A DNA stretch of 64,000 nt from a virus: positions 32,001 to 96,000 of IMG/VR virus record IMGVR_UViG_3300014913_000007. One strand, given 5' to 3'. The position numbers and the translations under genes were made by a program. This document shows, in pieces, positions 40,411-57,893 of the stretch. Position 1 is the first letter of the stretch. Every line of letters begins with the position of its first letter. The notes beneath the pieces are model-generated. The model saw nothing but the letters and a program-made list of their open reading frames with translations, did no database searches and had not been told where the DNA came from.

Positions 40411-43026
40411 TTAATCACACTTACTATCTACTTGTCCTGTATCTAAATTTATAATCTTAACACATCCATCTTCCATACGTACTTCTATATTGTCTCCGTA
40501 CTTCTGCTTGTATTGTTCCTGTAAGTCCTCAATCTTTATATACTTTTTAAGTATTCTAGATAATCCAGAACCAAACTCAGTAATATTCTTTGAGGATTTT
40601 TTAAGCTGTTCACATACATATTCTAAAGGAGCACCATGTCTTAGTGACATTGATATCAGCCTAGTAGAAGCTTCGTAGTCTTTATTATCAAAATACTCTA
40701 TTATATCTATCTCCCTAAACTCTAGAGCCTCCTCATCCAGGAAGCATAAAAAGTATTTGCCCTTGTTTCTTCTCTCTACATAGCCTGAAAAATGTTTGTT
40801 AGGAATTTTATTATGATGTTCCCCAAAGAACACTTCATATACGGATCCATTGAGTAAACCTACCATAACTACGTAATCTTTACCCTTAATCTTTGTAAAA
40901 TGTACTTCACAGGGCAGTTTCTTAGGTCTTTTAGGTGCTTCAGCTCTTTCTATGCTCTTAAGTTCTTCTCTCTTCTCTACTGTATCTGTAACTAATACAC
41001 CAGATCTACATCCATCTCTATAAATTGTTACACCTTTCAGCCCCTTCTCCCAGGCATACATATACAGCTTCTTCACAGTCTCTACATTAGTTTCGGCTGG
41101 TAAGTTAATAGTTGAACTTAAGCTGTGATCTACATACTCTGTAAGCACTGCCTGGAAGTCTATTCTCTTCTTCCAATCTAGTTTATCAGATGTTATGAAG
41201 TAATCTGGTAGTAGTTTGTTTAATTCTACATCATTTTTTATATTCTTAGGTAGTTCTTTACCTACGGAATTGAAGTATCTCTCTATGTTCTTTTCAAATA
41301 CTGGAAAATCTGTGTATTTATCTCCACTTTGATCCACAAAGTCCACTCTAGCACCTGGCTCATTGTTATTAATCTTCCTTCTTCTAGTGTACATGTGTCT
41401 AAAAGTAGGCTCTATACCTGAGGAACACTCACCTAACATGGAAATTGTACCTGTAGGTGCATTGGTAAGGATAGAAATATTCCTCCTACCATATCTCTTC
41501 ATCTTCTCTAGTAAATCCTCTGGGAAGGTGTTAAAGAATTCACAATCCTTCTCTACCTCCCAGTCCCAAACTTTAAAAGATCCGTACATCTTAGCTAACT
41601 CTACTGACTCATCATATGCACAGTCTCTGTAACACTTCTTAATATTCTTTGCTAATTCAATTGACTTCTTGCTTCCGTACTTTATACACAGCTGTGAAAA
41701 CATATCTCCCCAACCGTGGTCTCCTAATCCTATTCGTCTACCTTCTTCTCCCTTTTTTAATACGTTGTTCCATAGATCTATTTCGAGTTGGTATTCTACT
41801 TTCTTGTCTTCATCTGCTTCTTTCTGTTCTTTCATAAGTTTGTCTAATATTCTCTGTATTTGTAAGTTTTCTGCACGTACCAGTGCTTCTCCCATTGCTA
41901 CTGTAATTCTTATAGCTTTTTCAAATTTATCGAAGTTAAATGAAGCTTCTTTAGTAAAGGGTTTATCTACAAAGTTAAGTAGTCTTATACTTATTAACCT
42001 ACATGCATCATAAGCTGACAAGCTTATTTCACTACATGGATTCGTGCTAACTACCTCATATCCTTCATAAAAGTGTGCAGGGAGGGTCTTGGTAATAGTA
42101 TCTCTATTTAATATTCCAGGCTCTGCCATCTCCCAAGCTGAGGTACATACAGTATCCCATAGCTCCTTAGCCCTTACCTTTTTAGAAAACGTAGGTTCAT
42201 TAGAATCTATTGGAAACCTCAACTCAAAATCAGTATCTTTCTTGACCGCAGTCATGAACTCGTCTGTTATCCATAAGGATATGTTGGCTCCAGTACAGTA
42301 TGTAAGGTCTTTCTTCATTGTTGCCCACTTCTCGGAATCTGGATGCTTTATGTTTAATGTGAGCATAGTTGCTGCCCTTCGTCCTCCTTGTCCAACATCC
42401 CTTCCAGTATTACTAAAGTGATTTGACCAACCTATGGCTCCAGTGGAGGTTCTAGCAGCGTTGTTCACTTCAGCACCTGAAGGTCTAAGGGTGGATAGGT
42501 CTACACCTGTTCCTCCTCTACGCTTGAAAATGTGTGCCATATTCTCACTAGTTCTCATTATTCCTGCCATAGTGTCAGATGGAGCTGGAACCACAAAGCA
42601 ATTAGATAAGCTCTGTAGTTTATTAAGATCCCCAGCTGCTGCTAGTACTGAACCTTGTGGACACACTTCTTCGAAATCATTGCAAGCATCAAAAAAGATT
42701 TCAAACCAGGTGTAAGTCTTATCTGATCTACTGGGATCATACTCCTCTTTGAACACTCTTTTTAACCATTCCTCAGGAGGACAGTTTAATTCTGCAGTAG
42801 GTTGACCTGCTTCATCAAAGAAAGCACCTATAGTTTTATCCTCAGGCATTGCATCTGCTAGCACTCTCATCACCCTTATTATTGTCTCTGCCGGTGATAG
42901 TTCCAATAGGTTACCATCCTTATCTCTCAACGCATATTTATTTAAGTAAGTTGTTGCTGCGAGTTCGTTACCGTTAAAGAACTTTATTGCATTTTTTAAA
43001 GCTATCTGTTCATTGGACTTAGACAT
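40411..43026 (-). CDS. nrdJ: class II (B12-dependent) ribonucleotide reductase
   Basis: SLSNC, TNPCSEI, APTGTIS..SSGIEP, KGVTIYRDG, C-terminal RP..L domain. Confidence 0.9.
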   Translation of the reverse strand: MSKSNEQIALKNAIKFFNGNELAATTYLNKYALRDKDGNLLELSPAETIIRVMRVLADAMPEDKTIGAFFDEAGQPTAELNCPPEEWLKRVFKEEYDPSRSDKTYTWFEIFFDACNDFEEVCPQGSVLAAAGDLNKLQSLSNCFVVPAPSDTMAGIMRTSENMAHIFKRRGGTGVDLSTLRPSGAEVNNAARTSTGAIGWSNHFSNTGRDVGQGGRRAATMLTLNIKHPDSEKWATMKKDLTYCTGANISLWITDEFMTAVKKDTDFELRFPIDSNEPTFSKKVRAKELWDTVCTSAWEMAEPGILNRDTITKTLPAHFYEGYEVVSTNPCSEISLSAYDACRLISIRLLNFVDKPFTKEASFNFDKFEKAIRITVAMGEALVRAENLQIQRILDKLMKEQKEADEDKKVEYQLEIDLWNNVLKKGEEGRRIGLGDHGWGDMFSQLCIKYGSKKSIELAKNIKKCYRDCAYDESVELAKMYGSFKVWDWEVEKDCEFFNTFPEDLLEKMKRYGRRNISILTNAPTGTISMLGECSSGIEPTFRHMYTRRRKINNNEPGARVDFVDQSGDKYTDFPVFEKNIERYFNSVGKELPKNIKNDVELNKLLPDYFITSDKLDWKKRIDFQAVLTEYVDHSLSSTINLPAETNVETVKKLYMYAWEKGLKGVTIYRDGCRSGVLVTDTVEKREELKSIERAEAPKRPKKLPCEVHFTKIKGKDYVVMVGLLNGSVYEVFFGEHHNKIPNKHFSGYVERRNKGKYFLCFLDEEALEFREIDIIEYFDNKDYEASTRLISMSLRHGAPLEYVCEQLKKSSKNITEFGSGLSRILKKYIKIEDLQEQYKQKYGDNIEVRMEDGCVKIINLDTGQVDSKCD

Positions 43027-43325
43027 TTAAAAACTATTCCTTAGGTTAGTACTATTAAATTTTAAAATGATTAGCAATATGGATATGGTGGAGTCTGATT
43101 GAAGTATATATATGTGATTTTTCCTTTCCTGCAACTTTGAATCTCCTGCCCTTTATTAACTGCCTACAATAGACTATAGTATACTCTTAAAAAGATGTCT
43201 AGTGTACCACAGTAAATAATAAGGAAGATTTTTTATGTTAGGGATAATACTAAAGTAAAAAAAAACGCCATTGATACAAACAATGACGTAATTATACTAC
43301 TTATAAGTTTTAATACCTATATCTG

Positions 43326-43622
43326 TTACTTTTCGTATATGTGATAGCCTCTTACTTTATATCTACCCTTCTCTACAATAACTGAATCTAAGTAAGTCAA
43401 AGAAGCTGGTTCTCCAGCAGCAAAGTCTTCATCATCCCTGATTACTCTGAATTCTTTAGTAACGTCCTGGTTTGAAGTGTCTACTTCTGCCCATACGAAA
43501 AATCCAAAACTTCCTCCAGCCCCAGTTTCCTCTGCTTCTACTTTTAGTAGAGTAGCTCCACTAGGTACTACCATTTCAGTATCTGCATCATAGTCTAGAT
43601 AATATTTCCTAACTGTTTTCAT
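43326..43622 (-). CDS. hypothetical phage protein
   Basis: AGGAG RBS. Confidence 0.65.
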   Translation of the reverse strand: MKTVRKYYLDYDADTEMVVPSGATLLKVEAEETGAGGSFGFFVWAEVDTSNQDVTKEFRVIRDDEDFAAGEPASLTYLDSVIVEKGRYKVRGYHIYEK

Positions 43623-43688
43623 AATAAACTCCTAAAATTGTTAAATATATACTTAATATAGTATATATTAAAAAAATTAAAAAAGTTC

Positions 43689-43717
43689 TTGACTTTAATA
43701 TTTCAATGTACTATAGT
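43689..43717 (+). promoter_or_regulatory. promoter of tRNA array A
   Basis: TTGACT-N17-TATAGT. Confidence 0.75.
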
Positions 43718-43726
43718 AAATATGTT

Positions 43727-43773
43727 GCAGGTAATAAATATAGGGATACTCCTATAATTAGCCTGCTTTTTTT
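43727..43773 (+). terminator. promoter-proximal intrinsic terminator / attenuator hairpin
   Basis: GCAGGTAAT..TATAGG/CCTATA..ATTAGCCTGC followed by T7. Confidence 0.65.
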
Positions 43774-43783
43774 ATGAGTTAAT

Positions 43784-43903
43784 ATGATGGAAAAGAAACT
43801 TCAAATACATACAAATATCAATTCTAATATTATGGTGCCGTTCATGGTACCCATGTTTATTGCCCCTGCGGGGCAAGTACAACCAGTGCCATTTTGGTGC
43901 TAA
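43784..43903 (+). CDS. leader peptide A (MMEKKLQIHTNINSNIMVPFMVPMFIAPAGQVQPVPFWC)
   Basis: 39-codon ORF just upstream of array A; 30/39 residues match the array's tRNA specificities. Confidence 0.75.
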   Translation: MMEKKLQIHTNINSNIMVPFMVPMFIAPAGQVQPVPFWC

Positions 43904-43950
43904 TAAATTATTAATCAAACAATTTAGTTCGGGTAGAAGAAAGCAAATTT

Positions 43951-44025
43951 GGCGGGAAGGACGTTGGCTTCCAGTAGTGTCTCATAAGCATTATTACGCT
44001 GGTTCAATTCCAGCTTCCGCAACCA
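43951..44025 (+). tRNA. tRNA-Met(CAT), 1:72 mismatch (fMet/Ile2 identity uncertain)
   Basis: anticodon loop CTCATAA, TTCAATT T-loop, CCA. Confidence 0.75.
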
Positions 44026-44110
44026 TTTTATTAACTTAAATTCCTAGGATTACCATTTTCAGTGATTAGCTTGCAACACTTTGATCTTTAAGTGGTAGTC
44101 CTACTTTTCT

Positions 44111-44185
44111 GCTCCGGTAGCTTAACTGGTAAGAGCGTTCGGTTGAAGCCCGAAAGATGGAGATCGACACCTCTCTGGAGCACCA
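44111..44185 (+). tRNA. tRNA-Phe(GAA)
   Basis: cloverleaf, loop TTGAAGC, CCA. Confidence 0.85.
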
Positions 44186-44186
44186 T

Positions 44187-44258
44187 ACACTTCTAGTCTT
44201 GGGACAAAGGAAGCCTCCAAAACTTCTAAGCAGAGTTCGAATCTTTGGGAGTGTGCCA
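44187..44258 (+). tRNA. tRNA-Trp(CCA)
   Basis: loop CTCCAAA, TTCGAAT, G73 plus CCA; short D arm. Confidence 0.8.
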
Positions 44259-44259
44259 T

Positions 44260-44333
44260 GCTAGATTAGTTTAATGGTAGAACAGGAGTTTTACATGCTC
44301 TTAGCGGTGGTTCGATTCCATCATCTAGTACCA
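44260..44333 (+). tRNA. tRNA-Val(TAC)
   Basis: cloverleaf, loop TTTACAT, CCA. Confidence 0.9.
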
Positions 44334-44348
44334 TATTTTTATTTTTAT

Positions 44349-44420
44349 TCCGGTGTAACTCAGTGGTAGAGTGGTCGTCTGTTAAACGACTTGTCTGTAG
44401 TTCGATCCTACACACCGGAG
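44349..44420 (+). tRNA. tRNA-Asn(GTT)
   Basis: loop CTGTTAA; no encoded CCA. Confidence 0.9.
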
Positions 44421-44427
44421 CTTTTAT

Positions 44428-44503
44428 TGTATCTTAGCTTAATTGGCAAAGCGTGGAACTGTTAATTCCAAAGATTTAGGTTCGAACCCTAAAGATACAG
44501 CCA
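44428..44503 (+). tRNA. tRNA-Asn(GTT)
   Basis: loop CTGTTAA, CCA. Confidence 0.9.
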
Positions 44504-44504
44504 T

Positions 44505-44582
44505 CTGGATGTAGCTCAGCCTGGTCAGAGTGCTCGTTTTGGATACGAGTTGTCGGGGATTCGAATTCCTCCATCCAGACCA
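44505..44582 (+). tRNA. tRNA-Pro(TGG)
   Basis: loop TTTGGAT, C1-G72, CCA. Confidence 0.9.
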
Positions 44583-44592
44583 TTTTTTTTAC

Positions 44593-44668
44593 CTGGCATT
44601 GGTGTTTAACAGTAGCATGGTGGCTTTGGGAGCCAGCGGAGAAAGTGCAAATCTTTCATGCCAGACCA
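44593..44668 (+). tRNA. tRNA-Pro(TGG)
   Basis: loop TTTGGGA, CCA. Confidence 0.85.
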
Positions 44669-44724
44669 CTTTTTTAGAACAGTCATTCTTTACATTAAAA
44701 GCTATATAATATATACTATACTTA

Positions 44725-45174
44725 ATGGATACCAAGTACTGTGATAAATGTAAGAACGACCTGCCAGTTGATACTTTCCAAAGACGTGGGAAAAACGGAT
44801 TACAGCCTTGGTGTAAGAACTGTCAAAAAGAGTATGATAGACAACGTTACATAGATAATAAAGAATACATCTGTAAGCAAAATAAAGACGGTAGAGAGCG
44901 TAGAAGAGAAAGAAGTAGAAACGAAGTAACAAGCTATCTATTAGAGCATCCTTGTGTTGATTGCGGTGAGAAAGATATAATAGTACTCAGCTTTGATCAT
45001 GTTAGAGGAGAAAAGGAATTTAACATATCAGATGCGATTAAGGATGGTATGAAGTGGGAGAGGATAGCGAAAGAAATAAAGAAGTGTAAAGTTAGATGCT
45101 TCAACTGTCACATGAGAAAGACTGCAAAACAGCAGGGCTGGTTCAAATACAACAAATCAAATAAGAAAAAATAA
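44725..45174 (+). CDS. HNH endonuclease inside tRNA array A
   Basis: CVDCG..FDHV..RCFNCH; N-terminal CxxC pairs. Confidence 0.85.
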   Translation: MDTKYCDKCKNDLPVDTFQRRGKNGLQPWCKNCQKEYDRQRYIDNKEYICKQNKDGRERRRERSRNEVTSYLLEHPCVDCGEKDIIVLSFDHVRGEKEFNISDAIKDGMKWERIAKEIKKCKVRCFNCHMRKTAKQQGWFKYNKSNKKK

Positions 45175-45187
45175 CAAACAAAATTTA

Positions 45188-45261
45188 GGGGATATAGTTT
45201 AAATGGGAAACGCCAGCCTTGCAAGCTGAGGTTCTGGGTTCGATTCCCAGTTTCTCCACCA
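45188..45261 (+). tRNA. tRNA-Ala(TGC)
   Basis: G3:U70, loop CTTGCAA, CCA. Confidence 0.9.
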
Positions 45262-45269
45262 ATTTTTAA

Positions 45270-45344
45270 CCGGGGTTAGTGAAGCGGTTATCACCTCAGA
45301 CTTTGAATCTGAGATCGAGAGTTCGAATCTCTCACCCCGATCCA
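45270..45344 (+). tRNA. tRNA-Gln(TTG)
   Basis: loop CTTTGAA, CCA. Confidence 0.9.
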
Positions 45345-45345
45345 C

Positions 45346-45438
45346 TTTGGCCGATCCTGTACACCACTTATAAACTGACATATGTGACGGTAATCGCTAT
45401 TCATTTGGCGATCTTTTGGCCGATCTTTTGGCCGATCT
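45346..45438. repeat. TTTGGCCGATC(T) repeats, 4 copies (3 tandem)
   Basis: copies at 45346, 45404 (1-nt deletion), 45415, 45427. Confidence 0.8.
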
Positions 45439-45442
45439 TTAC

Positions 45443-45518
45443 GGGGGAGTAACTCAGGGGTAAGAGTGCCAGTCTGATATACTGGTGGTCGAAGGTTCAA
45501 CTCCTTCCTCCCCTACCA
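45443..45518 (+). tRNA. tRNA-Ile(GAT)
   Basis: loop CTGATAT, CCA. Confidence 0.9.
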
Positions 45519-45559
45519 TTTTCAATTGACTTACATTTATATGTAGGTTATACTTAACT

Positions 45560-45724
45560 AGGAAACACCAGTTAGAAGTTACTAGAAGCTTGGTGGTGTA
45601 CTTCTCTGGCATAGATCTATAGTAATTCTAGTTGAGCAAAATGTACGAAGCATTCACTATAGGTACCAGAGTTAGTGGTTTAGGGGGTGTTTAATGAGGC
45701 GAAGCCCTCCGACTGGTGTTTCTT
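45560..45724 (+). ncRNA. candidate ~165-nt structured RNA (6S-like rod)
   Basis: TTGACT-N17-TATACT at 45526-45554; 14-bp terminal stem; inner stem; U-tract. Confidence 0.55.
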
Positions 45725-45796
45725 TTTTCTTTCTTCAAGAAATCAAAAAGAAAAAAATAACAAAACAAAATTTAGGAATTATAATTTGATAGCTAT

Positions 45797-46348
45797 TTAG
45801 GTAAGAATACTTAAATCGTTGACGAAACACGACCAATTTTTGGCTTTTTGATGATACCCTAAAGGTAATTTAATGGGTAATTCATAGTAAAAATCATTGG
45901 TTACCTTATCTTGGTTTGGGAAGAAATCCATTCCTGTTTGATCTTTACCTATAAAATAACTTCTAGCTTCCTTTAAGGATATAGCTTTATCAAACAACAC
46001 CCAAACATGGTACCTATCTGGTGCTCCGCTTTTTTCTATAAGTATATTACTATGTATCTGTTTAGCCCAGAAAAATGCTTTAACTAAGTACTCCTCTCTT
46101 ATATCATCTACATCAAAACATAGGAACTTAACTGTCTGTGTTGAAAGTTCAGTTGGAAAGACACCCAAGGTTATCTTCCCTGCTAGATGTTTCTCGATTA
46201 ATTCTTTAGTAAGTGGAGCATATACTCTTTCATAGTAGTTCTCCCTTAATCTCCCAGAAGCATCCCTCTGCCAAGGATGCGGAGTCATTAAACAATAGGC
46301 ATCTTTTCTATGACAAAAAGTGTTATATAAGAAATCTACTTTACTCAT
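45797..46348 (-). CDS. stand-alone archaeo-eukaryotic primase domain (TOTE-associated type)
   Basis: HLAGKITLGVFP, FDVDD, EKSG..YHVW, FPNQD, IKLPLG. Confidence 0.75.
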   Translation of the reverse strand: MSKVDFLYNTFCHRKDAYCLMTPHPWQRDASGRLRENYYERVYAPLTKELIEKHLAGKITLGVFPTELSTQTVKFLCFDVDDIREEYLVKAFFWAKQIHSNILIEKSGAPDRYHVWVLFDKAISLKEARSYFIGKDQTGMDFFPNQDKVTNDFYYELPIKLPLGYHQKAKNWSCFVNDLSILT

Positions 46349-46658
46349 CTTCTATTTTATGTACACATCTAACACTATTCTCTGTATCTTCCTGTAAGGC
46401 AGTTCTATCCCCAATCATTAAGTCTCGATTTCCATTTATTACTCCTGTGGACAAAAGATATAGCCATTTATATCTTGTCAAATCTTCCACTTCTTTAGAG
46501 TATCTAACCACTGACTGCCAAGAAGTCCTAGGCCAGTCTGCTACCTTTGGAGCAAGTCCTAAAGTTTTTACTTGAACATTCACTACTTGTCCAACACTGT
46601 AGTCTTGAGTATCAGTAGTATAGTCTTCTGTTGCATATGTAACATAAATTGCTTTCAT
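46341..46658 (-). CDS. hypothetical protein
   Basis: ORF in a minus-strand run. Confidence 0.55.
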   Translation of the reverse strand: MKAIYVTYATEDYTTDTQDYSVGQVVNVQVKTLGLAPKVADWPRTSWQSVVRYSKEVEDLTRYKWLYLLSTGVINGNRDLMIGDRTALQEDTENSVRCVHKIEDE

Positions 46659-46659
46659 G

Positions 46660-47671
46660 TTATATTCTCCATTTTATTAAGAAATTAAGTGCATAATCCG
46701 ATTTATTAAAAATATTTATCTGTGTAGTACTAGGTGGATCTGAGGTCTCCGTAGGAAAAGCAATCATAGTATTAAAACCCTTTTCATCCCATTGCCATCC
46801 TGCCCCACCTCGATAGATATTAACTACCTGCCCCGGTACTTGTCCAGTAATGCCATTATGAACTAGAGTATCAGGAAAGGTATAATTATAATTAGTTATC
46901 CCGCGCCATACTGCCTGAGTAACATTACGAACATTAAACTCATCCGGTGGTTCATGGAATTCAAAAATGTCGTTAGTTTGATGTGTTGCAGTTCCTGATA
47001 CCATCGTTGTATTTGCTTGCTTACTGTTGATATATGAAGTAATATAGCTCCAGGTATCTCTTGTTATATTATGAACTACAGCTCCTACAGGCAACTTACC
47101 TTGTATCACCGACCTAGTTAGGATACTTGTAAGACCTGTATTACCGTGGCTTAAACCAGTACCAACAATAAGTCCTAACTGATACCACACCTTCCCCTCA
47201 ACAACCATCTGAGTAGTTGAAGTACCAGCGGAGAGTGTTAAATCTAACTCCCCTTCATCAGCAAAATTTCTTTGTTGTATAACTTGAAAATCGGCAGTAT
47301 AAGCCGGAATCGATAGGTTGACAGTTTCCCATCTCTTACCCTCTACCACAACTATTGCCATATTATTATAAAATTTATTGTCTTCTATGTCAGTCTCAAG
47401 CATAGAGCTTGTTGAGGCCACCAATTCGTCTACATACAGTTTTAGTTGTGGCATCATTCTGCCCACTTGGAGTGGGTAAATTAATCAAAGATTGATTATT
47501 AAAATCCACTGGACTTTGTGGTTTATATAGGTACCAATCCTCTGCAGCTCCTCCAGAGGGTACAACTATTTCTGAATCAGAATACCTTCCAGCTACAGCT
47601 ATCAAGTCCTTCCCTACCTTAATTATACTTGATTCAGGTGTTACTTGTGGATCTACTTTATAATTTGACAT
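46660..47671 (-). pseudogene. MSNYKVDPQV-module virion protein split by a +1 frameshift
   Basis: 47396-47671 and 46660-47466 join as DATTK|LYVDELVAS, matching EAATKLYVDQLIAS in the 56241 paralog; extra base in the T4 run at 47440-47443. Confidence 0.75.
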
Positions 47672-47930
47672 TTACCACTCTTCTATGCTAAATTTTTCTC
47701 TAGATATACTTATAATATAGTACACAAAGTTAACATTCAACTTTTTAGTTAAGTATCTACAATATTATACTTTGTCAACTATCTAAAACACACACGGACT
47801 TACAAGTCCTCTGTTTCTACTTTATAAAAAAGGACCCGTAAGTGACTAATTACAGGTCCAAAGCCGTCACGACTAACATGTACGCATTGTACTACTTGAT
47901 ATATAGTACTTTTAATAGTATACTACAAAT

Positions 47931-48452
47931 ATGTTTAATTTCATAGAGATATTATTTATAATGTTATCAACAACCTACCAGGTTCCTGAAATCTTTGATT
48001 GCCATATAAATAAATATCAGATATTAAAACTCAGTAACGAAGTCACCTTTGATGTAAGTAACTTCCTAAAGTATGATAGATATGTACTCAAATCGTCTCA
48101 AATTCACTCTATAGACCCCGATTTAATCAGATCAATCATCATAGTGGAATCTAAATATAATCCAGCTGTAGGCTCTCACAGAGGGGCTAGCGGGTTGATG
48201 CAGCTCATGCCACTTACTGCCAAGTATTTAAACGTAACAGACAGGAAAGATCCTGAGCAATCAATTGAAGGTGGTACTAAGTATTTGAGGGAACTATTCA
48301 CCAGATTTGGTAATCTAGACCTTACCCTAGCAGCGTACAACGCAGGTCCTACAATAGTAGGAAAGTACAATAAGATTCCTCCAATTAAAGAAACTGGCAT
48401 ATATGTTAGGAAAGTCAAGTACTTATATAAACAATTATCTAAAAACAACTAA
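47931..48452 (+). CDS. SLT-family lytic transglycosylase
   Basis: VES, GASGLMQLMP, AAYNAG. Confidence 0.9.
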   Translation: MFNFIEILFIMLSTTYQVPEIFDCHINKYQILKLSNEVTFDVSNFLKYDRYVLKSSQIHSIDPDLIRSIIIVESKYNPAVGSHRGASGLMQLMPLTAKYLNVTDRKDPEQSIEGGTKYLRELFTRFGNLDLTLAAYNAGPTIVGKYNKIPPIKETGIYVRKVKYLYKQLSKNN

Positions 48453-48527
48453 TAACAATCTCTGAAAATGTACTATCTTATAATGTAGTATACTTGTATA
48501 AAAATATTTTTAAAGAGGTAATATATA

Positions 48528-48800
48528 ATGGCATTATTATTTGATGGAGTAGCAACGGATTTCGCAGCTGATGAAGCTAGTTTCGTAGAGGTTGCACATA
48601 ATATTGGACAATGTCCTGATAGCATTCAATTTTTAGGAGTTGAAGGTGAGGTAGAAGGTTTTCCTACACTACTAGATGGTGAAGGTGATGAAATTCCTGG
48701 CCCATACCTAACACAAACAAGAGATCCTAATGTAGTTAGAGTTCACAAACCTAACGCTTATACGTTCGCAGGTAAGTTTATTGTTCGTATTTACGGATAA
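48528..48800 (+). CDS. small putative virion protein
   Basis: GAGG RBS; TGTACTAT motif upstream. Confidence 0.6.
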   Translation: MALLFDGVATDFAADEASFVEVAHNIGQCPDSIQFLGVEGEVEGFPTLLDGEGDEIPGPYLTQTRDPNVVRVHKPNAYTFAGKFIVRIYG

Positions 48801-48851
48801 TTTATAATCTCTATAGCCTGGTTAATTAACTTTAACTGGGCTATTTTTACG

Positions 48852-49214
48852 TCATAAATCTATAAGTCTCAGCTCTCTATTCCTATAATAGATTTTAGCA
48901 GTACCTTCAACGAAGTCTTTTAATGTTCTTGAAAAGATAGTACACCCATAACAGTCTGCCAACCTGTCTTCGTAATCCACTAGAGCTAAGAAATTGTTAA
49001 CTCCTCCTAAGCTTTCCTCTGAAAACCCAAACTTTATTAAGTCTTTTCTTTCTAAAGATCTTCTATCTATATGTGCTCCATTATAGAATTCAGTACGTAG
49101 TATAGCTTTATACTTAGCACCTTCCTTAGTTTCCTTTATCCAAAAAGAATTACCAAAGAGCAGAATCTCTATGAATTTATCTCTAGTTACTCTTCTTATC
49201 TTATATCTACTCAT
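48852..49214 (-). CDS. hypothetical protein
   Basis: ORF. Confidence 0.55.
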   Translation of the reverse strand: MSRYKIRRVTRDKFIEILLFGNSFWIKETKEGAKYKAILRTEFYNGAHIDRRSLERKDLIKFGFSEESLGGVNNFLALVDYEDRLADCYGCTIFSRTLKDFVEGTAKIYYRNRELRLIDL

Positions 49215-49770
49215 CTCTTAAAAGTTCCTGTCTGAAAAGTACCCAACGATGGTTAAGTTCTACTTTACCTCTATTAACCTCATCTAAATAGTCTATACAG
49301 TCAACTACATTGTCAAACATGAACTTAGGATCTATAATTCCAAATAACCAAGAGGATGCTTTTGTTTTACCCCCTTTCACGATAACTAGTACAGGCTTCT
49401 TCTGCTGATCTGCAAGTATTAGTTCATGGTACGTTCCACACATATGAATGCTAGTATCTACCATAACTATTAAGAAGTCAGAGATATCTACTTGTCTCAA
49501 ATCCGAGCGTACAATTTTTCTCATTAATCTTCTAAGTTTTGTCCAGCTTCTGTTCTTCTTTAATGTTCGAATAGCTTCCTGCTCCTCTCCTACGTCAGGT
49601 GTAAGAGCTTCTAACTTATGAGTTGGGTCTAGGAATTTGATACCTATACCTCGTTTCTTAGTTTCTTCTATAATTTCTTGTCTATAAGACACTCCATAAT
49701 CCTCAGACATATCAATAGGTCCCGCTAAATATGCCACAGATTTATCTAATATGTTGACCTTTTTACTCAT
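49207..49770 (-). CDS. nucleoside 2-deoxyribosyltransferase-like protein
   Basis: YLAGPID, DLRQVDISD, GTYHE. Confidence 0.75.
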   Translation of the reverse strand: MSKKVNILDKSVAYLAGPIDMSEDYGVSYRQEIIEETKKRGIGIKFLDPTHKLEALTPDVGEEQEAIRTLKKNRSWTKLRRLMRKIVRSDLRQVDISDFLIVMVDTSIHMCGTYHELILADQQKKPVLVIVKGGKTKASSWLFGIIDPKFMFDNVVDCIDYLDEVNRGKVELNHRWVLFRQELLRDE

Positions 49771-50741
49771 TAGTTTTCTCCATGTTTAGTATATAAATGT
49801 AAATATATTCTAGATATCTGATCTAGAAAAATTTCAAAGGTATGATCCTTTTTCATCATATTACAAGTTTTGCAAGCTGGTACACAGTTATCTAAGTAAT
49901 AACCCTTAGTATTGTCTAGTCTATCTATACTATTCCTAAATAGTCCTTTTCCTGACCTGAGCTTAGTTTGCGGAGAGTTTCCACAGTAATAACACTTTGA
50001 AGAGGCTATGGTTTTGAACTCCTCCAAAGTTAGATCAAAAGTAGTATTGTTAAAAAGCTTGTTACGTCTTCTATAGTTTGAAGCTATATACGCTCTAAAT
50101 TCTGACTCCCAAGCTTTAGCCTTAGTAGAAGGTCTCAAACTTTGTGAACACCTTGAACACTTTTTAATTAGTCCCTGCCTAAGATTGCAACCTATATATG
50201 CCTGCTCATTACCACATGTACACCTACACATCCACTTAAGTTCACGTTTTCCACTTTTAAATACATGATCCTCAACATTATACAAGACTACCAAATCTCC
50301 AAACACTTTTCCAGATAGATCAATAACAGATTTATACCTAATTACTTTAGAAAGGTTATCACAAGTCTCGCAGTAGGTACTACTACTTCTTCTAGAGGCT
50401 TTTCCATTGTAAGTCTTCAAAGTATCAATTGATATTTCCTTTTCTAGACCACAACTGCATTTACATAGATACCAAGATCGTCTTGTCTTTGTTGTCGAAC
50501 TTCTAGTTCTCTCTAAAACTGTCCAATTGTAGAAAGATTTCCCTATTAATTTTAACCTCTGTTCTTCGTGTTTACACTTTACACATTGTGTACTCATGCC
50601 TCTCGATAAAGCTGATCCTAGGACTGTGCTTTCTGTACCACAACTACATTTACATGTCCAATAAAGGTTTCCACTGGCGCTCTTATCCCTGGCTTTACTA
50701 ACTACCGTCCATTTACCTATTATTTGTCCAGTTTCAATCAT
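49770..50741 (-). CDS. HNH-type endonuclease with three CxCxCG repeats
   Basis: GKWTV..W.C.C.CG-like unit x3; CYYCG..IDRLDN..GY..NCVPACKTCN. Confidence 0.85.
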   Translation of the reverse strand: MIETGQIIGKWTVVSKARDKSASGNLYWTCKCSCGTESTVLGSALSRGMSTQCVKCKHEEQRLKLIGKSFYNWTVLERTRSSTTKTRRSWYLCKCSCGLEKEISIDTLKTYNGKASRRSSSTYCETCDNLSKVIRYKSVIDLSGKVFGDLVVLYNVEDHVFKSGKRELKWMCRCTCGNEQAYIGCNLRQGLIKKCSRCSQSLRPSTKAKAWESEFRAYIASNYRRRNKLFNNTTFDLTLEEFKTIASSKCYYCGNSPQTKLRSGKGLFRNSIDRLDNTKGYYLDNCVPACKTCNMMKKDHTFEIFLDQISRIYLHLYTKHGEN

Positions 50742-50835
50742 TTGTCTAAAATATTCGGATTCTTACTCATATTAAATCCTGTTATTAAGTAAAAATTCTA
50801 TACCTATTATAACATTATAAGTACAAAGCTGCAAC

Positions 50836-51216
50836 CTACTTACCATTAACATGTTTATATACCTTGTCATACAACTCTTTTACTAACTTACTAATAAATT
50901 CCGGATCATGAGTCTCTACTTTACTAATATGCTTACCACAATCCTTACAACGAACATAGAAGTGAATGCGGGGACCAATAAAGTCTCCTTGACAGGAATC
51001 ATAATCCTCTCTTTTGACGTGTTCGATATCTGGGTCATAATCTAGATTCTCATGCTTACAGGCTTCTATCTCACAGGCTCTTTCACATACTCCGGCCTCA
51101 TGCTCTTGTTTATAGGACTTACTACAAATATCACAGATATACTCGTAAACGTCATACTTCACCGTCCTTTCAATTGTCTTAACTAGTTTCTTCTTCATTG
51201 TTTTCCTTACATCCAC
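50836..51216 (-). CDS. Cys-rich zinc-binding protein (paralog 1)
   Basis: YxCxxC..CE..C..CxH..CxxC. Confidence 0.65.
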   Translation of the reverse strand: MDVRKTMKKKLVKTIERTVKYDVYEYICDICSKSYKQEHEAGVCERACEIEACKHENLDYDPDIEHVKREDYDSCQGDFIGPRIHFYVRCKDCGKHISKVETHDPEFISKLVKELYDKVYKHVNGK

Positions 51217-51547
51217 AAATTACAAAATCATCTGCTAACTCATATACTTCTCTAAAAAACTTACGAGAACAACATAAGTCCATCTTCTTATCTGATATTA
51301 CCTTATTACAGTTACTGCACTTCTCTAACAGGTACAGATATCCGGGTTCATGATCGTCTACATCATAAGAACGTCCTGGGAATTCCTCTATTACTACCTT
51401 TGTACAGTAATGTTTGCAATCTTTCTGCCTACATAATGACTCACACTCCTCTATATCTTTAGGACTTAAAGACTTCTTACCACAAAAGATACATTCATAC
51501 TCAATTACATATTCAGTTACTGGTACTTTTATTCTTTCTGTTTTCAT
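51179..51547 (-). CDS. Cys-rich zinc-binding protein (paralog 2)
   Basis: same Cys pattern. Confidence 0.65.
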   Translation of the reverse strand: MKTERIKVPVTEYVIEYECIFCGKKSLSPKDIEECESLCRQKDCKHYCTKVVIEEFPGRSYDVDDHEPGYLYLLEKCSNCNKVISDKKMDLCCSRKFFREVYELADDFVICGCKENNEEETS

Positions 51548-51927
51548 TCAAAGTCTTCCTCTTTTGTTTTATAGATTGAGAACTTCTTATACTGTTCTGC
51601 TATAGGTTGTATCTTCGCCAGGAATAGCTGTATATACTTCTTACCTTCTATCCTAACTTCACTAATGGCTGCTCCACATCGAGAACACTCTCCTTCAATT
51701 GATAGACTTGGGTGTTCAACTATGTCTAGATCTTCGTTAAAGGATCCGGAAAATCCATATAAACTATAATTAATTTCGTCATGTTCACAGTTAGTAAATC
51801 TACATAAGTCCGTACACTCTTTGGCCTCTTCTTCAGTGTCATATTCTCTTTTGCAGACTTCACATATATATCTATAGATGGTAACTTCCCTTAATTCTTT
51901 ACCTATAATCACTTTTTTCATTACCAA
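51544..51927 (-). CDS. Cys-rich zinc-binding protein (paralog 3)
   Basis: same Cys pattern. Confidence 0.65.
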   Translation of the reverse strand: MVMKKVIIGKELREVTIYRYICEVCKREYDTEEEAKECTDLCRFTNCEHDEINYSLYGFSGSFNEDLDIVEHPSLSIEGECSRCGAAISEVRIEGKKYIQLFLAKIQPIAEQYKKFSIYKTKEEDFE

Positions 51928-52847
51928 TCTGCCCCGAAAACTAACCCACCATAAATAGAAAACCTATCTTCTTGCTCTGAATACTGCCTAGTAGATCCTA
52001 TAACATTAAATTTAACTGAGTATCCTAAATATTCCAGTCCGACTCCAGTATGCAGACTACTTACAAAATGTTTAGTATCTACACTATGACTTTTTCTAAA
52101 CAAAGTTCCATCATAGAATATATTCCTACCTACTAAAGCTATGTTAGTTCCACCAAAAGCATATGCTGATACTCTCTCAGTGTGGCTTCCATCTAGTTGA
52201 GGTAAGTTTCTTCCTACTCTAAACAAATTTTTATAATTAAAATCAGTGTAAATATTACCTGACCTAAACCGTATTTCAGATACTCTATCTATAAATCTTC
52301 CATAAACAAACTTCTTACTTCTAAGATACTCTAAGTTTAGTACTAGCTCATGAGGTAGCTGATGATCCCAACCTTTAGGGTCTTTCCCCTTGCCTAGGTC
52401 ATTATGTACAAATTTCTGTGCATGTTCAGAAAAAGAATACTTACCCACCAATCCTATAGTTAAGGAGGTCTCTATTCTAAAGTCGGCATCAGCGTTTACT
52501 CTAGTTAACTGTGTAAACAATAATCCTGCATAGGGGTTATTGTTTTCTATTAGCTCCACTACCCCTATATCACTTGGGGTATGAATCTCTTGCCCAAACC
52601 TTGTTTTAATTCTGGTTAGTTTATCAGGGTCATTATCGTATATTCTAATAGCGGGTAAAAATCTCGCAGCTTGTCTCAGTTTCTTGGTGGCTTTAGCATA
52701 GCCTACTGAATTAGTTAAGATAGTTCCATGTGTGTAGTTTTTATCACTCCCCCCCACAATATCATTTTCTATAGTTATGCCAAAGTTATTGGAAACTGAA
52801 CAACTACACAAAAAAGTTAGTAGTATTATATATAAGTACTTAAACAT
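51921..52847 (-). CDS. lpxR: lipid A 3'-O-deacylase LpxR family outer-membrane protein
   Basis: END..D..YTHG, GQEIHTP, PYAG, QKFVH, GWDHQL; signal peptide; terminal aromatic W. Confidence 0.85.
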   Translation of the reverse strand: MFKYLYIILLTFLCSCSVSNNFGITIENDIVGGSDKNYTHGTILTNSVGYAKATKKLRQAARFLPAIRIYDNDPDKLTRIKTRFGQEIHTPSDIGVVELIENNNPYAGLLFTQLTRVNADADFRIETSLTIGLVGKYSFSEHAQKFVHNDLGKGKDPKGWDHQLPHELVLNLEYLRSKKFVYGRFIDRVSEIRFRSGNIYTDFNYKNLFRVGRNLPQLDGSHTERVSAYAFGGTNIALVGRNIFYDGTLFRKSHSVDTKHFVSSLHTGVGLEYLGYSVKFNVIGSTRQYSEQEDRFSIYGGLVFGADW

Positions 52848-52852
52848 GAAAC

Positions 52853-53233
52853 TTAAACCTCAATTATAAAATTATCTTCTTCCTCTGACTTAGTAACCTT
52901 ATTTACTCTTTTAGTACATAATGCAATACTAGTTTTATTAGGTCTTCCCTTCCTTCTAGCCTGAATGCCAGTACTCCCAAAGATAGTCCTTAAAGCTTTA
53001 GTATCTATTCTATACCTTACTGCTATCTCTTTCTGAGTCTTGCCTTCTATTATGTACAATTTAAACAACTTGTCTCTGGTTAACAATCTCCTAGCTCTTG
53101 CTATTTTTGTTTCTTTTCTCTTCACACAATGCTTTGATTTGAATTTCAACATTGTCCGGGTAGAGGCAGTTTCCACTTTGACTTCTCCTTTAGTTCCAAA
53201 TAAGACTTTTCTTATTCTTTTAATAAACAACAT
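52853..53233 (-). CDS. HTH-containing protein
   Basis: LYIIEGKTQKEIA. Confidence 0.55.
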   Translation of the reverse strand: MLFIKRIRKVLFGTKGEVKVETASTRTMLKFKSKHCVKRKETKIARARRLLTRDKLFKLYIIEGKTQKEIAVRYRIDTKALRTIFGSTGIQARRKGRPNKTSIALCTKRVNKVTKSEEEDNFIIEV

Positions 53234-53353
53234 ACTGCTCCTACTTCTCCTTCTTATTAAATATTCCTATAGAAAACAGTATACCCATCCTTTGATTGTA
53301 TGTCAAACTATTAATATAATCAATGCTAATAAAATTAATTAATTAATTAATTC

Positions 53354-53382
53354 TTGACTTTTATCATTACCTGTACTATAGT
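53354..53382 (+). promoter_or_regulatory. promoter of tRNA array B
   Basis: TTGACT-N17-TATAGT. Confidence 0.75.
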
Positions 53383-53388
53383 GAGTAT

Positions 53389-53469
53389 ATGATTACAAGA
53401 ATGATTTCTTTATACACTTCTTTATGTACCTCTTATCTAGAGGAACTCGAATATCTATATCTAAAATAA
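53389..53469 (+). CDS. leader peptide B (MITRMISLYTSLCTSYLEELEYLYLK)
   Basis: ATG at the expected +1; L/Y/E/C-rich, matching array B. Confidence 0.75.
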   Translation: MITRMISLYTSLCTSYLEELEYLYLK

Positions 53470-53484
53470 GGTAAACTTCACATA

Positions 53485-53549
53485 AAACTAAACGCACTTC
53501 TGGCCCAGTTTTATGGGAAGGAGATAAGTGTATTTAGTTTTTGTTTTTT
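53485..53549 (+). terminator. terminator-like hairpin between leader B and the first tRNA
   Basis: AAAACTAAACGCACTT/AAGTGTATTTAGTTTT followed by TGTTTTTT. Confidence 0.55.
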
Positions 53550-53553
53550 ATTA

Positions 53554-53640
53554 GCCCAGGTGGTGGAATTGGTAGACACGCTGAGTTTAAGCCTCAGTGT
53601 CAGCAATGACGTACAGGTTCGAGTCCTGCTCTGGGCACCA
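53554..53640 (+). tRNA. tRNA-Leu(TAA)
   Basis: long variable arm, loop TTTAAGC, CCA. Confidence 0.9.
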
Positions 53641-53641
53641 T

Positions 53642-53725
53642 ACTAGATTGGTGGAATTGGTAGACACATTAGGCTCAAACCCTGAGGCCAGAAATGGTGT
53701 ATAGGTTCGACTCCTATATCTAGTA
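53642..53725 (+). tRNA. tRNA-Leu(CAA)
   Basis: loop CTCAAAC; no CCA. Confidence 0.9.
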
Positions 53726-53730
53726 CTTAT

Positions 53731-53814
53731 GCCGAGGTGGTGGAATTGGTAGACACGCTAGTCTTAGAAGCTAGTGCCCGAAAGGGCGTGAGGGTTCGAC
53801 CCCCTCCTTCGGCA
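53731..53814 (+). tRNA. tRNA-Leu(TAG)
   Basis: loop CTTAGAA; no CCA. Confidence 0.9.
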
Positions 53815-53823
53815 CTTTTATAT

Positions 53824-53897
53824 GACTCCTTGGTCAAGTGGTAAGACGAGAGATTGCAAACCTCTAGTCCTGGGTTCAATCCCCAGAGGAGTTTCCA
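53824..53897 (+). tRNA. tRNA-Cys(GCA)
   Basis: loop TTGCAAA, U73, CCA. Confidence 0.9.
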
Positions 53898-53898
53898 C

Positions 53899-53986
53899 GG
53901 GAGAACGGTCACGATGGTGGAGTGGCACTGGTCTGTAAAACCAGCACAAAGAAACACAGGGGGTTCGAATCCCTCTTCTCCCACCA
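53899..53986 (+). tRNA. tRNA-Tyr(GTA)
   Basis: loop CTGTAAA, long variable region, CCA. Confidence 0.9.
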
Positions 53987-53989
53987 CAT

Positions 53990-54060
53990 GTCTCCATCGT
54001 CTAACGGTAGGACATCTGACTTTCTATCAGATAATGTCGGTTCGATTCCGGCTGGAGATA
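53990..54060 (+). tRNA. tRNA-Glu(TTC)
   Basis: TCTGA-CTTTCTA-TCAGA anticodon arm; no CCA. Confidence 0.85.
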
Positions 54061-54066
54061 CTTTTT

Positions 54067-55110
54067 TTAATCCTCTACTAGTACCTTAGATTGTATATAC
54101 TCTTTAACATACTTAAAAGGAATATCTAAGTCTTCGCTTATCTCCTCATAAGAAAGTCCTTCATCTATAAGCATAGTAGAAACTTCTGTTCCGTGTGCCT
54201 CCACTAAAGGTCTGAAGACTTGTTTAGCTTTTATTAACTCTTTCTTTGAGTTCCAATATCTAACAGACTTAAATAATTTCTTAGCTTTAGTATCTTCTGG
54301 AAAAATAGATGATTCAAGATCTACTTCTGGATATAGAATTTCTGCAAACTTAATCATGTCTACTGTCATAACTCTTACCCTACATACAGTAGATTGCTTC
54401 GTACTAGTATTTTCTAGGATGGTATTATATATTCCTAAATCCTTTAGTACTTCTGAAAACTGAGTGACAAATTTAATAGTAGGTCCACTCATGGATAGAA
54501 ATCCAGGTTCAGGTTCTGTTAAATTCTTACAGAAACCTCCATGTCTTTCAAAATACCCTCTCAAGTAATGTGGTAGTAGTTTCTTTGGCATTAAAGGTGG
54601 GAAGTCTAACATGTTTACATTTCTACTACCATAGTGCCACTTATTAAGTGCTTCTCTTATTCCTTGTTGGCTTATAGTAAGAAAAAATTTACCATATTCA
54701 CGTCCATTTACTGTTTGAGTACGGTAACTAAATTTATTATCTATCTTTAAACATTTTTTTAACTTTACTAAGTACTCTTTATCTTTTATAGAAGAAGTTA
54801 TTATCATACTTTCTGAAGTACTAGTCTTAAGGATCGATCCTGCCCAAGCTAGGTAACCTAATACGTAAGCTAAGTCCTTATTATCAATTTTCTTAAACTT
54901 ATCTAAGTCTATTTTCTTATACTTTCTTGTATTAATCATTCCAAGATCATAGCATTCCTTAAAGGATCTAAACTTCATATTATATTTTTCAAATAGCTTT
55001 TCTACTCTGTAAGTTGTAATAGAATATTTTTTTGCTATAGCTTTTTTACTTTTAAGCTCAATTAAGTAACTGGTCTCTAGTTGTTTTTTAGTTGGTAATT
55101 TAGTAAGCAT
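54067..55110 (-). CDS. degenerate LAGLIDADG protein with terminal HTH-like segments
   Basis: YVLGYLAWAGS and YLRGYFERHGG lack the catalytic D-G. Confidence 0.7.
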   Translation of the reverse strand: MLTKLPTKKQLETSYLIELKSKKAIAKKYSITTYRVEKLFEKYNMKFRSFKECYDLGMINTRKYKKIDLDKFKKIDNKDLAYVLGYLAWAGSILKTSTSESMIITSSIKDKEYLVKLKKCLKIDNKFSYRTQTVNGREYGKFFLTISQQGIREALNKWHYGSRNVNMLDFPPLMPKKLLPHYLRGYFERHGGFCKNLTEPEPGFLSMSGPTIKFVTQFSEVLKDLGIYNTILENTSTKQSTVCRVRVMTVDMIKFAEILYPEVDLESSIFPEDTKAKKLFKSVRYWNSKKELIKAKQVFRPLVEAHGTEVSTMLIDEGLSYEEISEDLDIPFKYVKEYIQSKVLVED

Positions 55111-55215
55111 CTATCAGTCTCCTTAAAAAATTCACTATAAGTAGCAGCTTACCAATATACAATAGTTTTGTCAATAGTACTTGCTATCTAAATAAAAATC
55201 CTATATAATATGCCT

Positions 55216-55381
55216 AGGGAGTGCCGACTCACAGTAGAGGAAACACTCGTAACGACAAAAAAATAAAGATGCTACTGTCTCTTAACTACTGGGTTTAATG
55301 GTTCGTTTATGTGCTCTGTACGTAACATCACCACCGATGGCTGTAGGTGTAAGCTCAACCTAGGAACGGGCCAGCTTTTTT
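55216..55381 (+). ncRNA. candidate structured RNA / 5' leader
   Basis: TTGCTA-N17-TATAAT at 55181-55209; multi-stem fold; U-tract. Confidence 0.4.
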
Positions 55382-55399
55382 ATTATACAAGTAACTAAA

Positions 55400-55738
55400 A
55401 TGAAGAAAATAAAACCTAAAGACTATTCAAAGTTAAAGCCTGGTAAAACATACCTATTTGCAAGTATACACTTCAAAGAAAAAGAAGTAAGTCTGCAAGG
55501 GAAAAAAGTTAAAACCTGGGAAATAGTAGAAGTAACTCCCAGAGAAGGTAAATTACTATCAATAACCACTAAAAGAATAGAGATACTAAAGAAAGGCAAA
55601 CCTACAGGAAAGTTCGCTCTGGTTGGGGATGTATTAATCTTTGAACCAAGAAATAACTGCATAGTATTAATGGGAAGTAAAGTAAAAGTCTTCAAAACAG
55701 TAATAGGCTGTAATAATTTTAAAATATATAAGAAGTAA
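55400..55738 (+). CDS. basic hypothetical protein
   Basis: ORF. Confidence 0.55.
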   Translation: MKKIKPKDYSKLKPGKTYLFASIHFKEKEVSLQGKKVKTWEIVEVTPREGKLLSITTKRIEILKKGKPTGKFALVGDVLIFEPRNNCIVLMGSKVKVFKTVIGCNNFKIYKK

Positions 55739-56240
55739 TTAAATATGGATCCAGTAATACTAATATTAATACTTATCTTATTTACGTCTGTGACTATAAA
55801 TTTGGTGCTTACATGTAGGTTATTAAGGTCTGAACTAACTTTAAGAAGAAAATCTAAAAGATTAGAAGCAGTTATGAAAGAAAATGAACGCTACTTCTAC
55901 GAACAGTTCGATAAATATGTTGATAACAAGTCAAATGAGGATTTTCATTAATCTGCTGGCCTATCTACTAAAATCCAGACACATCTACTGAATATATTTA
56001 AAGTAACTTCATCCTTCAATTCATGATCGTCTGGTGAGATGGTCTTATCATACCCTAAACATTTGAGATATTTATTCTCTACCCTGGCTAATTGTCTTAA
56101 CTTTTCAAAAGAGAGTTTCATTTCGTCTCTGTCCTTTTCCAGCATTGTATGTCCTTATGTATTTATAAGTTATTATTAATATTAGTTTAACATATATTTA
56201 ATACTAAGTCAAATACGTATTTTATGCTATTTCTTGACTT

Positions 56241-57794: not shown

Positions 57795-57864
57795 AATTAT
57801 TATTATTCCCTCATATTAAAATTTCTTTTAATATTCTATAGTACATTACCAAGTTAAATATTTC

Positions 57865-57893
57865 TTGACATACGTTAATATCTGTACTATAGT
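57865..57893 (+). promoter_or_regulatory. promoter of tRNA array C
   Basis: TTGACA-N17-TATAGT. Confidence 0.75.

Follow-up and report, generated by a model that had tools for sequence, protein, structure and literature searches.

The leader and its array

This report concerns leader A, a short open reading frame (ORF) that precedes an array of transfer RNA (tRNA) genes in a phage genome. The DNA analysed, here called the window, is a 64,000-nucleotide (nt) stretch spanning bases 32001-96000 of a single virus record of 153,389 bp and 34% G+C (IMGVR_UViG_3300014913_000007); positions are those of the window unless a contig is named. The window holds 23 tRNA genes at the default setting of ARAGORN and 25 at a relaxed threshold. 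These genes sit in four same-strand arrays, A to D, and cover all amino acids except Ser. Leader A lies between the promoter of array A and the first tRNA gene, and its codons call largely for the amino acids of the tRNAs that follow. The features on which the argument rests are these:

43689-43717, plus strand: promoter of the array A operon (TTGACT, 17 nt, TATAGT; TGTAC directly before the -10 box)
43784-43903, plus strand: leader ORF A, 39 codons plus stop, 30 of the 39 residues from the nine specificities of the array
43833-43902, plus strand: structured, GC-rich distal half of ORF A (codon 17 to stop), with local hairpins at 43860-43876 and 43885-43901 and an alternative long-range fold
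43901-43950, plus strand: spacer from the stop codon to tRNA-Met, with a 26-nt G-free run (43901-43926), AATCAAACAA (43913-43922) and the purine box GGGTAGAAG (43931-43939)
43951-44025, plus strand: Met-type tRNA with anticodon CAU, atypical, with a G1-A72 mismatch (relaxed ARAGORN; Rfam 21.5 bits against a cut-off of 29)
44111-44185, plus strand: tRNA-Phe(GAA) (ARAGORN default, Rfam)
44187-44258, plus strand: tRNA-Trp(CCA) (relaxed ARAGORN threshold only)
44260-44333, plus strand: tRNA-Val(UAC) (ARAGORN default, Rfam)
44349-44421 and 44428-44503, plus strand: two tRNA-Asn(GUU) (ARAGORN default, Rfam)
44505-44582 and 44593-44668, plus strand: two tRNA-Pro(UGG) (ARAGORN, Rfam; the second at only 25.9 bits)
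45188-45261, plus strand: tRNA-Ala(UGC) (ARAGORN default, Rfam)
45270-45344, plus strand: tRNA-Gln(UUG) (ARAGORN default, Rfam)
45443-45518, plus strand: tRNA-Ile(GAU) (ARAGORN default, Rfam)

An earlier note on this DNA, made by eye from the letters and their translations, had named the array as Met, Phe, Trp, Val, two Asn, two Pro, Ala, Gln and Ile. The Phe, Val, Asn, Pro, Ala, Gln and Ile genes are all recovered on the plus strand by ARAGORN at its default and at the Rfam gathering score. Met and Trp fall below threshold and appear with relaxed ARAGORN only. Both calls are supported by L046, a related scaffold described below, in which Met likewise stands first and a Trp gene lies between Phe and Val.

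Leader A is matched to the tRNAs that it precedes

The translation of leader A is as the earlier note gave it, and so are its counts: 30 of 39 residues overall, and 26 of the 28 residues from 11 to 38, belong to the set M, F, W, V, N, P, A, Q and I, which covers all nine specificities of array A. In the long ORFs of the genome the same set makes up a fraction of 0.38 of residues. Only two loci in the six frames of the 153,389-bp genome reach 30 of 39 or 26 of 28, namely leader A and a low-complexity Pro/Ala/Val/Gln repeat of the PAAPVQ type. A maximal-segment scan on 400-nt tiles found that 0.26% of tiles match the score of leader A, its own tiles included. When ORF A was shuffled with its dinucleotides preserved, 5 of 100,000 shuffles got to 30 of 39 (P = 5e-5) and the distal counts were never reached; nucleotide composition thus does not account for the amino-acid bias. 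The other five frames across the stretch hold 11-19 in-set residues of 39-40.

The match extends to codons. Ordinary wobble allows the anticodons of the array to read 28 of the 30 in-set codons; four-way wobble is required for CCC and GCC, and the GAU anticodon does not read ATA. All four kinds of Pro codon are used (CCG, CCC, CCT, and CCA twice), and the remark of the earlier note that CCG and CCC are unexpected here was borne out, as they make up 4% and 9% of Pro codons in the long ORFs. Codons 17-39 are enriched in synonymous codons that end in G or C (9 of 19, where 3.7 would be expected; P = 0.005); codons 1-16 show no such excess. Matched codons run up to the stop codon. No Pfam family matched the peptide. 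Chance falls far short of explaining the codon match of leader A, which is genuine and belongs to a system.

A family of matched leaders

The other three tRNA operons of the genome have leaders of the same kind. When the four leaders were tabulated against the four arrays, enrichment was 1.8-2.5 fold between a leader and its own array and did not exceed 1.16 fold in any other pairing. By the scan statistic, the fraction of tiles scoring as high is 0.0026 for leader A, 0.0046 for B, 0.0013 for C and 0.088 for D. Leader B is followed by a U-rich tail, which suggests a terminator.

All four operons also share a promoter. The form TTGACW-N12-TGTACTATAGT occurs in the whole genome solely at the four tRNA operons and, with two mismatches, at one site before a ribonucleotide reductase gene that adjoins array A. 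The promoter core is identical before the homologous leader in L046, an ENA scaffold of 13.9 kb that is the sole relative with a homologue of leader A:

L046:7122-6979, minus strand: homologue of leader A, a 47-codon open ORF

L046 is syntenic with the focal genome, with a reductase about 72% identical, a beta-helix, tail-fibre-like protein 67% identical and the same gene order. Its layout runs from the promoter to an ATG 30 nt on, the 47-codon ORF, a 47-nt G-free spacer with five CAATA repeats, the box GAGTAGAAG, and genes for tRNA-Met and tRNA-Ile; one further gene is then followed by Phe, Trp and Val in the order seen in array A. The two leader peptides are 39% identical, with 15 identical positions that include FIA and QPVP, and 20 of 24 residues in the distal half of the L046 leader are in the set. 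Where the distal halves differ, an in-set residue is mostly swapped for a chemically unlike in-set residue (alignment read by eye), which argues for selection on set membership, or on the tRNA called, rather than on a peptide fold. The earlier note had named a frameshift in relatives that keep the array as a way in which its reading could fail. The L046 ORF is homologous, carries the same bias and is not shifted, and the frame stays open in both genomes despite indels.

The remaining L046 operons follow suit. A second promoter precedes an 18-codon ORF with the core NNNAANP, ahead of Asn, Asn, Pro, Ala and Gln genes; a third precedes a Gly/Thr-rich ORF ahead of Gly, Gly, Thr and Thr; a fourth precedes an ORF, read by eye, that opens with GTG and is rich in Arg, His, Lys, Asp and Thr, ahead of Asp, Arg, Lys and Lys. 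A second relative, L047, whose reductase is 57% identical, has two leaders behind the same type of promoter (L047:1761-1909 and L047:3611-3829, both minus strand). One is rich in Leu, Glu, Tyr and Cys and precedes three Leu, a Cys, a Tyr and two Glu tRNA genes. The other, ahead of three tRNA-Ser genes, is a Ser-rich ORF of 16 codons in which Ser takes up six of the last nine positions; the focal phage, unlike L047, is without any tRNA-Ser. Leader A has the promoter, the matched short ORF and the conservation that mark these codon-matched leaders, and it belongs to a set of them that is conserved in this phage lineage.

Matched leaders also occur in an unrelated phage. G001 (also listed as L031; IMGVR_UViG_3300034062_004313) is an IMG/VR contig of 155,874 bp that shares only seven proteins with the focal genome. 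It carries a leader with the core THTTCPQWFTPT before an array of Pro, Thr, Phe, Gln, His and Cys genes, and another with the core LSLYSSSSYLLL before Leu, Leu, Ser, Ser and Tyr, the last identified from its anticodon. The two lie at L031:5586-5720 and L031:8136-8267, and 0.15% and 0.46% of the tiles of that genome score as high. Each has its ATG about 6 nt past a -10-like box and a GC hairpin with a U-tract directly before the first tRNA gene. By inspection of the sequences, the segment at the end of the ORF can pair alternatively with the 5' arm of the terminator, so that the predicted arrangement is the textbook attenuator layout applied to tRNA genes. The same scan statistic found no matched leaders on contigs G002 and G003 or before arrays 2, 3 and 5 of G001.

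The region upstream of leader A

Leader A differs from its sisters in where it starts. In operons B, C and D the ATG of a 26-28-codon ORF stands 6-9 nt past the -10 box, and these leaders begin at the predicted transcription start. The 5' untranslated region before leader A is longer, at about 60 nt (about 23 nt in L046), and includes two further elements:

43722-43757, plus strand: 11-codon ORF, its ATG 4 nt past the -10 box, overlapping the 5' arm of the hairpin below
43727-43773, plus strand: terminator-like hairpin (43727-43766; 16 pairs, -16.6 kcal/mol, z = -2.5) followed by U7 (43767-43773)

In operons B, C and D the ATG at the position equivalent to 43722 starts the codon-matched leader. 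In operon A the predicted transcription start at 43724 (7 nt past the end of the -10 box) probably cuts this ATG, which makes translation of the 11-codon ORF doubtful. A second promoter that would make ORF A itself leaderless was considered and rejected, as inspection found no acceptable pair of -35 and -10 boxes.

ORF A cannot control the upstream hairpin and its U7, since RNA polymerase meets the hairpin before the ORF exists. Both are missing in L046, where the ATG comes sooner after the promoter, and the hairpin is thus best seen as a lineage-specific addition. It could cause partial termination, stabilise the 5' end or give rise to a short RNA.

RNA structure in the leader and the spacer

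The distal half of ORF A is 54% G+C, against 34% for the genome. The earlier note had proposed three hairpins in the 3' half (CATGG/CCATG, TTGCCCC/GGGGCAA and AGTGCCA/TGGTGCT), and all three exist. In the minimum-energy fold they unite into one irregular hairpin over 43833-43902 (-30.5 kcal/mol, z = -2.8), which is matched by 4% of synonymous recodings and by 0.2% of permutations of codon order. The local hairpins at 43860-43876 and 43885-43901 recur in L046, where two wobble pairs of the second have become Watson-Crick pairs. An origin of this half from a tRNA gene was rejected, since its fold is a single long hairpin rather than a cloverleaf. When ribosome footprints were imposed at successive codons, the local hairpins and the long-range fold replaced each other, and no state made or removed a terminator. 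The U-tract at 43767-43773 has two alternative partners in these constrained folds, the start region of the ORF and the purine box. By inspection, a small GC hairpin spans the stop codon in several short leaders.

The spacer between stop codon and first tRNA gene has conserved traits of its own. A G-free run begins at the stop codon and measures 26 nt in leader A, 23 nt in leader D and 47 nt, with 11 C, in L046; 1.5% of genome positions attain the length seen in leader A, and 0.1% of positions that seen in L046. The element AATCAAACAA followed by TT(T/C)A(G/A)TT(C/A)GGGTAGAAG occurs in the genome only between the leader and the first tRNA gene of arrays A and D (43913-43939 and 60445-60475). 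A box of the form (G/A)GTAGAAG stands 10-21 nt before the first tRNA gene in operons A and D of this genome and in three operons of L046.

What leader A may do

Taken together, the sequences suggest that leader A is probably a translated ORF that senses the supply of the aminoacyl-tRNAs encoded by its own operon. Scarcity of at least one of the nine tRNA species would slow the ribosome in codons 11-39, the distal, matched and structured part of the ORF. A slowed ribosome would alter the fate of the nascent transcript such that a larger share of it reaches the tRNA genes. Under good supply the ribosome would reach the stop codon and output would drop, this being the direction of response that we infer. 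The conserved hairpins in the ORF, the G-free spacer and the (G/A)GTAGAAG box suggest a factor-dependent or processing step of the kind known from tnaC and mgtL. We would accordingly place the output step first in the G-poor spacer and the purine box, as factor-dependent termination or as processing, and second in hairpin-dependent pausing or processing.

Several findings weigh against such a sensor. Shine-Dalgarno pairing is weak, amounting to the 3-nt GAG 5 nt before the ATG, where 51 of the 85 long ORFs of the genome have at least 4 nt. The structure in ORF A is just moderately stronger than that of its synonymous recodings (P = 0.04). Between the stop codon at 43901 and tRNA-Met at 43951 there is no intrinsic terminator (a hairpin with a U-tract) or other recognisable switch, and the sole terminator-like element, at 43727-43773, stands upstream of the ORF. 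The G-free spacer of leader A holds only about three C and is a poor candidate for a Rho loading site. Finally, a homologous leader is known from one relative only. The missing terminator, the upstream position of the hairpin and the weak ribosome-binding site also tell against the classical attenuation that the earlier note had implied, and the output step of leader A, as far as its sequence can be read, is not an intrinsic terminator of the trp type. The few C in the spacer weaken a Rho model as well, and we commit ourselves to the sensor function only and not to an output step. The earlier note was probably right on what the ORF is for; the mode of action that it put forward is probably wrong in detail.

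Other accounts of the ORF fare less well. Chance would produce a spurious ORF rich in a set that covers nine of the twenty amino acids; the set is broad, with its background of 0.38, and the ORF and the residue window were both picked by an earlier reader after seeing them. The genome-wide six-frame scan and the shuffles oppose this, as do conservation in L046, parallel cases in eleven other operons and a dedicated promoter, and chance is hardly credible as an explanation. It is also very unlikely that the product of ORF A is a small hydrophobic peptide serving a separate purpose and that the ORF matches the array incidentally. The C-terminal half is hydrophobic and the 15 positions shared with L046, FIA and QPVP among them, could reflect such a function, but a membrane helix is unlikely with five prolines in 23 residues and almost no leucine, and the conserved DNA coincides with the conserved hairpins. 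The substitutions, in the alignment read by eye, are chemically non-conservative yet stay within the set, no Pfam family was matched, and the leaders of other arrays differ widely in composition, each tracking its own array.

Two further accounts deserve more weight. The leader could be a structured non-coding RNA that acts, for example, in pausing, in processing or in stabilising the 5' end of the tRNA precursor, and the open frame would then be incidental. The GC-rich, strongly folded distal half, the enrichment of rare codons ending in G or C, the recurrence of two hairpins in L046 with pair-preserving changes and the weak Shine-Dalgarno all fit this idea. It remains quite unlikely, as the amino-acid bias does not come from nucleotide composition and is confined to one of six frames, the L046 frame is open despite indels and 61% divergence of the peptide, and all other tRNA operons in three related genomes have an ORF that fits their own tRNAs. 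Nor does RNA structure preclude translation. The other account keeps translation and reverses the sign: ribosomes on the leader would sustain transcription or protect the transcript, and scarce tRNAs would lower output, so that the leader acts as a gate and not as a sensor of scarcity. No pair of terminator and antiterminator follows ORF A, the RNA past the ORF is never translated and is therefore exposed to polarity of the Rho-dependent kind, and the two alternative pairings of the U-tract in the constrained folds also fit. Such a positive loop would give no homeostasis, however, and it leaves unexplained why each leader polls the tRNAs of its own operon only; in the layouts of G001 and leader B, stalling should favour read-through. 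We judge this gate unlikely.

Comparison with known systems

The closest analogues in logic are the attenuators of the trp type (trpL, hisL, pheL, leuL, thrL and the ilv leaders, and pheM of pheST). They likewise have a short ORF in the 5' leader that is rich in codons reporting on the product, with hairpins that overlap the ORF, and polling of several amino acids is known from the ilv and thr leaders. In line with them, ORF A lies on the same strand between promoter and first tRNA gene, and its product-reporting codons are enriched (30 of 39, against a background of 0.38). Unlike them, leader A precedes tRNA genes and not genes for enzymes or synthetases, so that the loop would close on tRNA abundance; it polls nine specificities; and its matched codons run to the stop codon. 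It also lacks the intrinsic terminator before the first regulated gene, none being found in 43904-43950; G001 has one, as does leader B to judge by its U-rich tail.

Rho-dependent control by leader peptides is known from tnaC of the tna operon and from the mgtL/mgtP and corL leaders of Salmonella, and the proline codons of mgtL act as sensors. Directly after the ORF, leaders of the tnaC and mgtL type have a G-poor, unstructured stretch that lacks an intrinsic terminator, and their sensitive codons lie near the stop; leader A resembles them in this layout. Its spacer departs from theirs in having about three C in a 26-nt G-free run (11 C in 47 nt in L046), and the conserved purine box (G/A)GTAGAAG has no counterpart there. 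T-box riboswitches also sense a specific tRNA to control genes of the translation apparatus, but a T-box contacts the uncharged tRNA itself and needs no ribosome, and its targets are synthetase and amino-acid genes. An Rfam scan of 43000-62000 with E up to 1 found no T-box, returning only tRNA-type matches and two weak chance matches.

The tRNA region of phage T5 resembles the present one in having small ORFs, promoters and homing HNH endonucleases between tRNA genes, and 'unusual' small ORFs were reportedly described there in the 1980s. The same scan statistic applied to 20 kb of that region found no matched upstream ORF (best tile fraction 0.27), and T5 was rejected as a precedent for codon-matched leaders. 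Full-text literature searches returned no account of leader-peptide control of tRNA genes. As far as can be told, leader A is new in having tRNA genes as targets, in how many specificities it polls and in lacking a terminator.

Other features of the array and its surroundings

The CAU tRNA that heads the array could be an elongator tRNA-Met, an initiator or a tRNA-Ile that reads AUA; AUA makes up 56% of Ile codons in the genome. Its D arm is atypical and could not be aligned. The L046 counterpart (L046:6832-6916) passes the default ARAGORN threshold and is 85 nt long, with an extra arm. In the 85-nt spacer between Met and Phe, a stable hairpin at 44045-44103 precedes CUUUUCU; its energy is -20.3 kcal/mol (z = -3.6), which none of the shuffles equalled. 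Candidate roles are those of an internal terminator, of a processing site and of a small stable RNA. The hairpin is not conserved in L046 and was rejected as a conserved attenuator.

The array is interrupted by a protein gene:

44725-45174, plus strand: HNH endonuclease gene, 43-47% identical to annotated phage HNH endonucleases

A promoter-like site at 44689-44717 has a -10 box that ends 7 nt before the ATG of this gene, which appears to be leaderless; such a -10-like box before the ATG is found at 19 of 85 long ORFs in the genome. Overlapping the 3' end of the gene in another frame is a 22-codon ORF (45096-45164) that stops 24 nt short of the sub-array of Ala, Gln and Ile genes. It has VQIQQI among its last ten residues, and its score is reached by 2.5% of tiles; it may be a chance occurrence or the remnant of a second leader. 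Just upstream of tRNA-Ile, an 11-13-nt unit (TTTGGCCGATC and a variant) occurs four times within 45346-45440, and three of these copies form a tandem with a spacing of 12 nt.

Array A is adjoined by a class II ribonucleotide reductase with homologues at 52-71% identity in metagenome assemblies. Among its other relatives, L048, L049, L051, L052 and L053 have no tRNA genes near the reductase gene. A further sequence, L054, has none, and another, L050, has a single ORF ending near an Asn-Asn-Arg-Phe-Trp array, whose match to that array is not convincing. Also adjoining is a protein of 183 amino acids (45797-46348, minus strand) with an archaeo-eukaryotic primase domain of the TOTE conflict-system type (PF22548, E = 5e-21), whose closest homologues (45-76% identical) are found solely on contigs below 2 kb. 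Searches of the phage collection, in near and distant mode, and of IMG/VR returned no close relative by DNA or by a flanking protein of 98 amino acids, and the sole match to that protein among 5.8 billion proteins was the query itself. A back-translated pattern of leader A had no match in IMG/VR. The promoter pattern matched two contigs there, both without tRNA genes. A pattern combining leader and box gave 28 matches in metagenomes and IMG/VR, none with tRNA genes after it; all look like chance and were discarded.

Implications

The role of phage tRNA genes is still debated, with compensation for codon usage, escape from host defences that cleave tRNAs and replacement of a decaying host pool all under discussion. 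Should the reading proposed here be true, the phage would measure a shortage of tRNAs and respond to it operon by operon, and ribosome-mediated attenuation, so far a matter of amino-acid and synthetase genes, would extend to tRNA genes. More tentatively, tailed phages with large tRNA sets may run closed-loop homeostats on their own tRNAs, in which the leader peptide of each tRNA operon polls exactly the tRNAs encoded there, up to nine species. This broader proposal, which is possible but at present falls short of probable, would have the scheme conserved in one lineage and arisen independently in, or spread to, an unrelated one, and operons of the A and D type would use a previously undescribed output step that is not an intrinsic terminator and works through the G-free spacer and the (G/A)GTAGAAG box. 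The composition signature of the leaders offers a simple means to search viromes for further cases.

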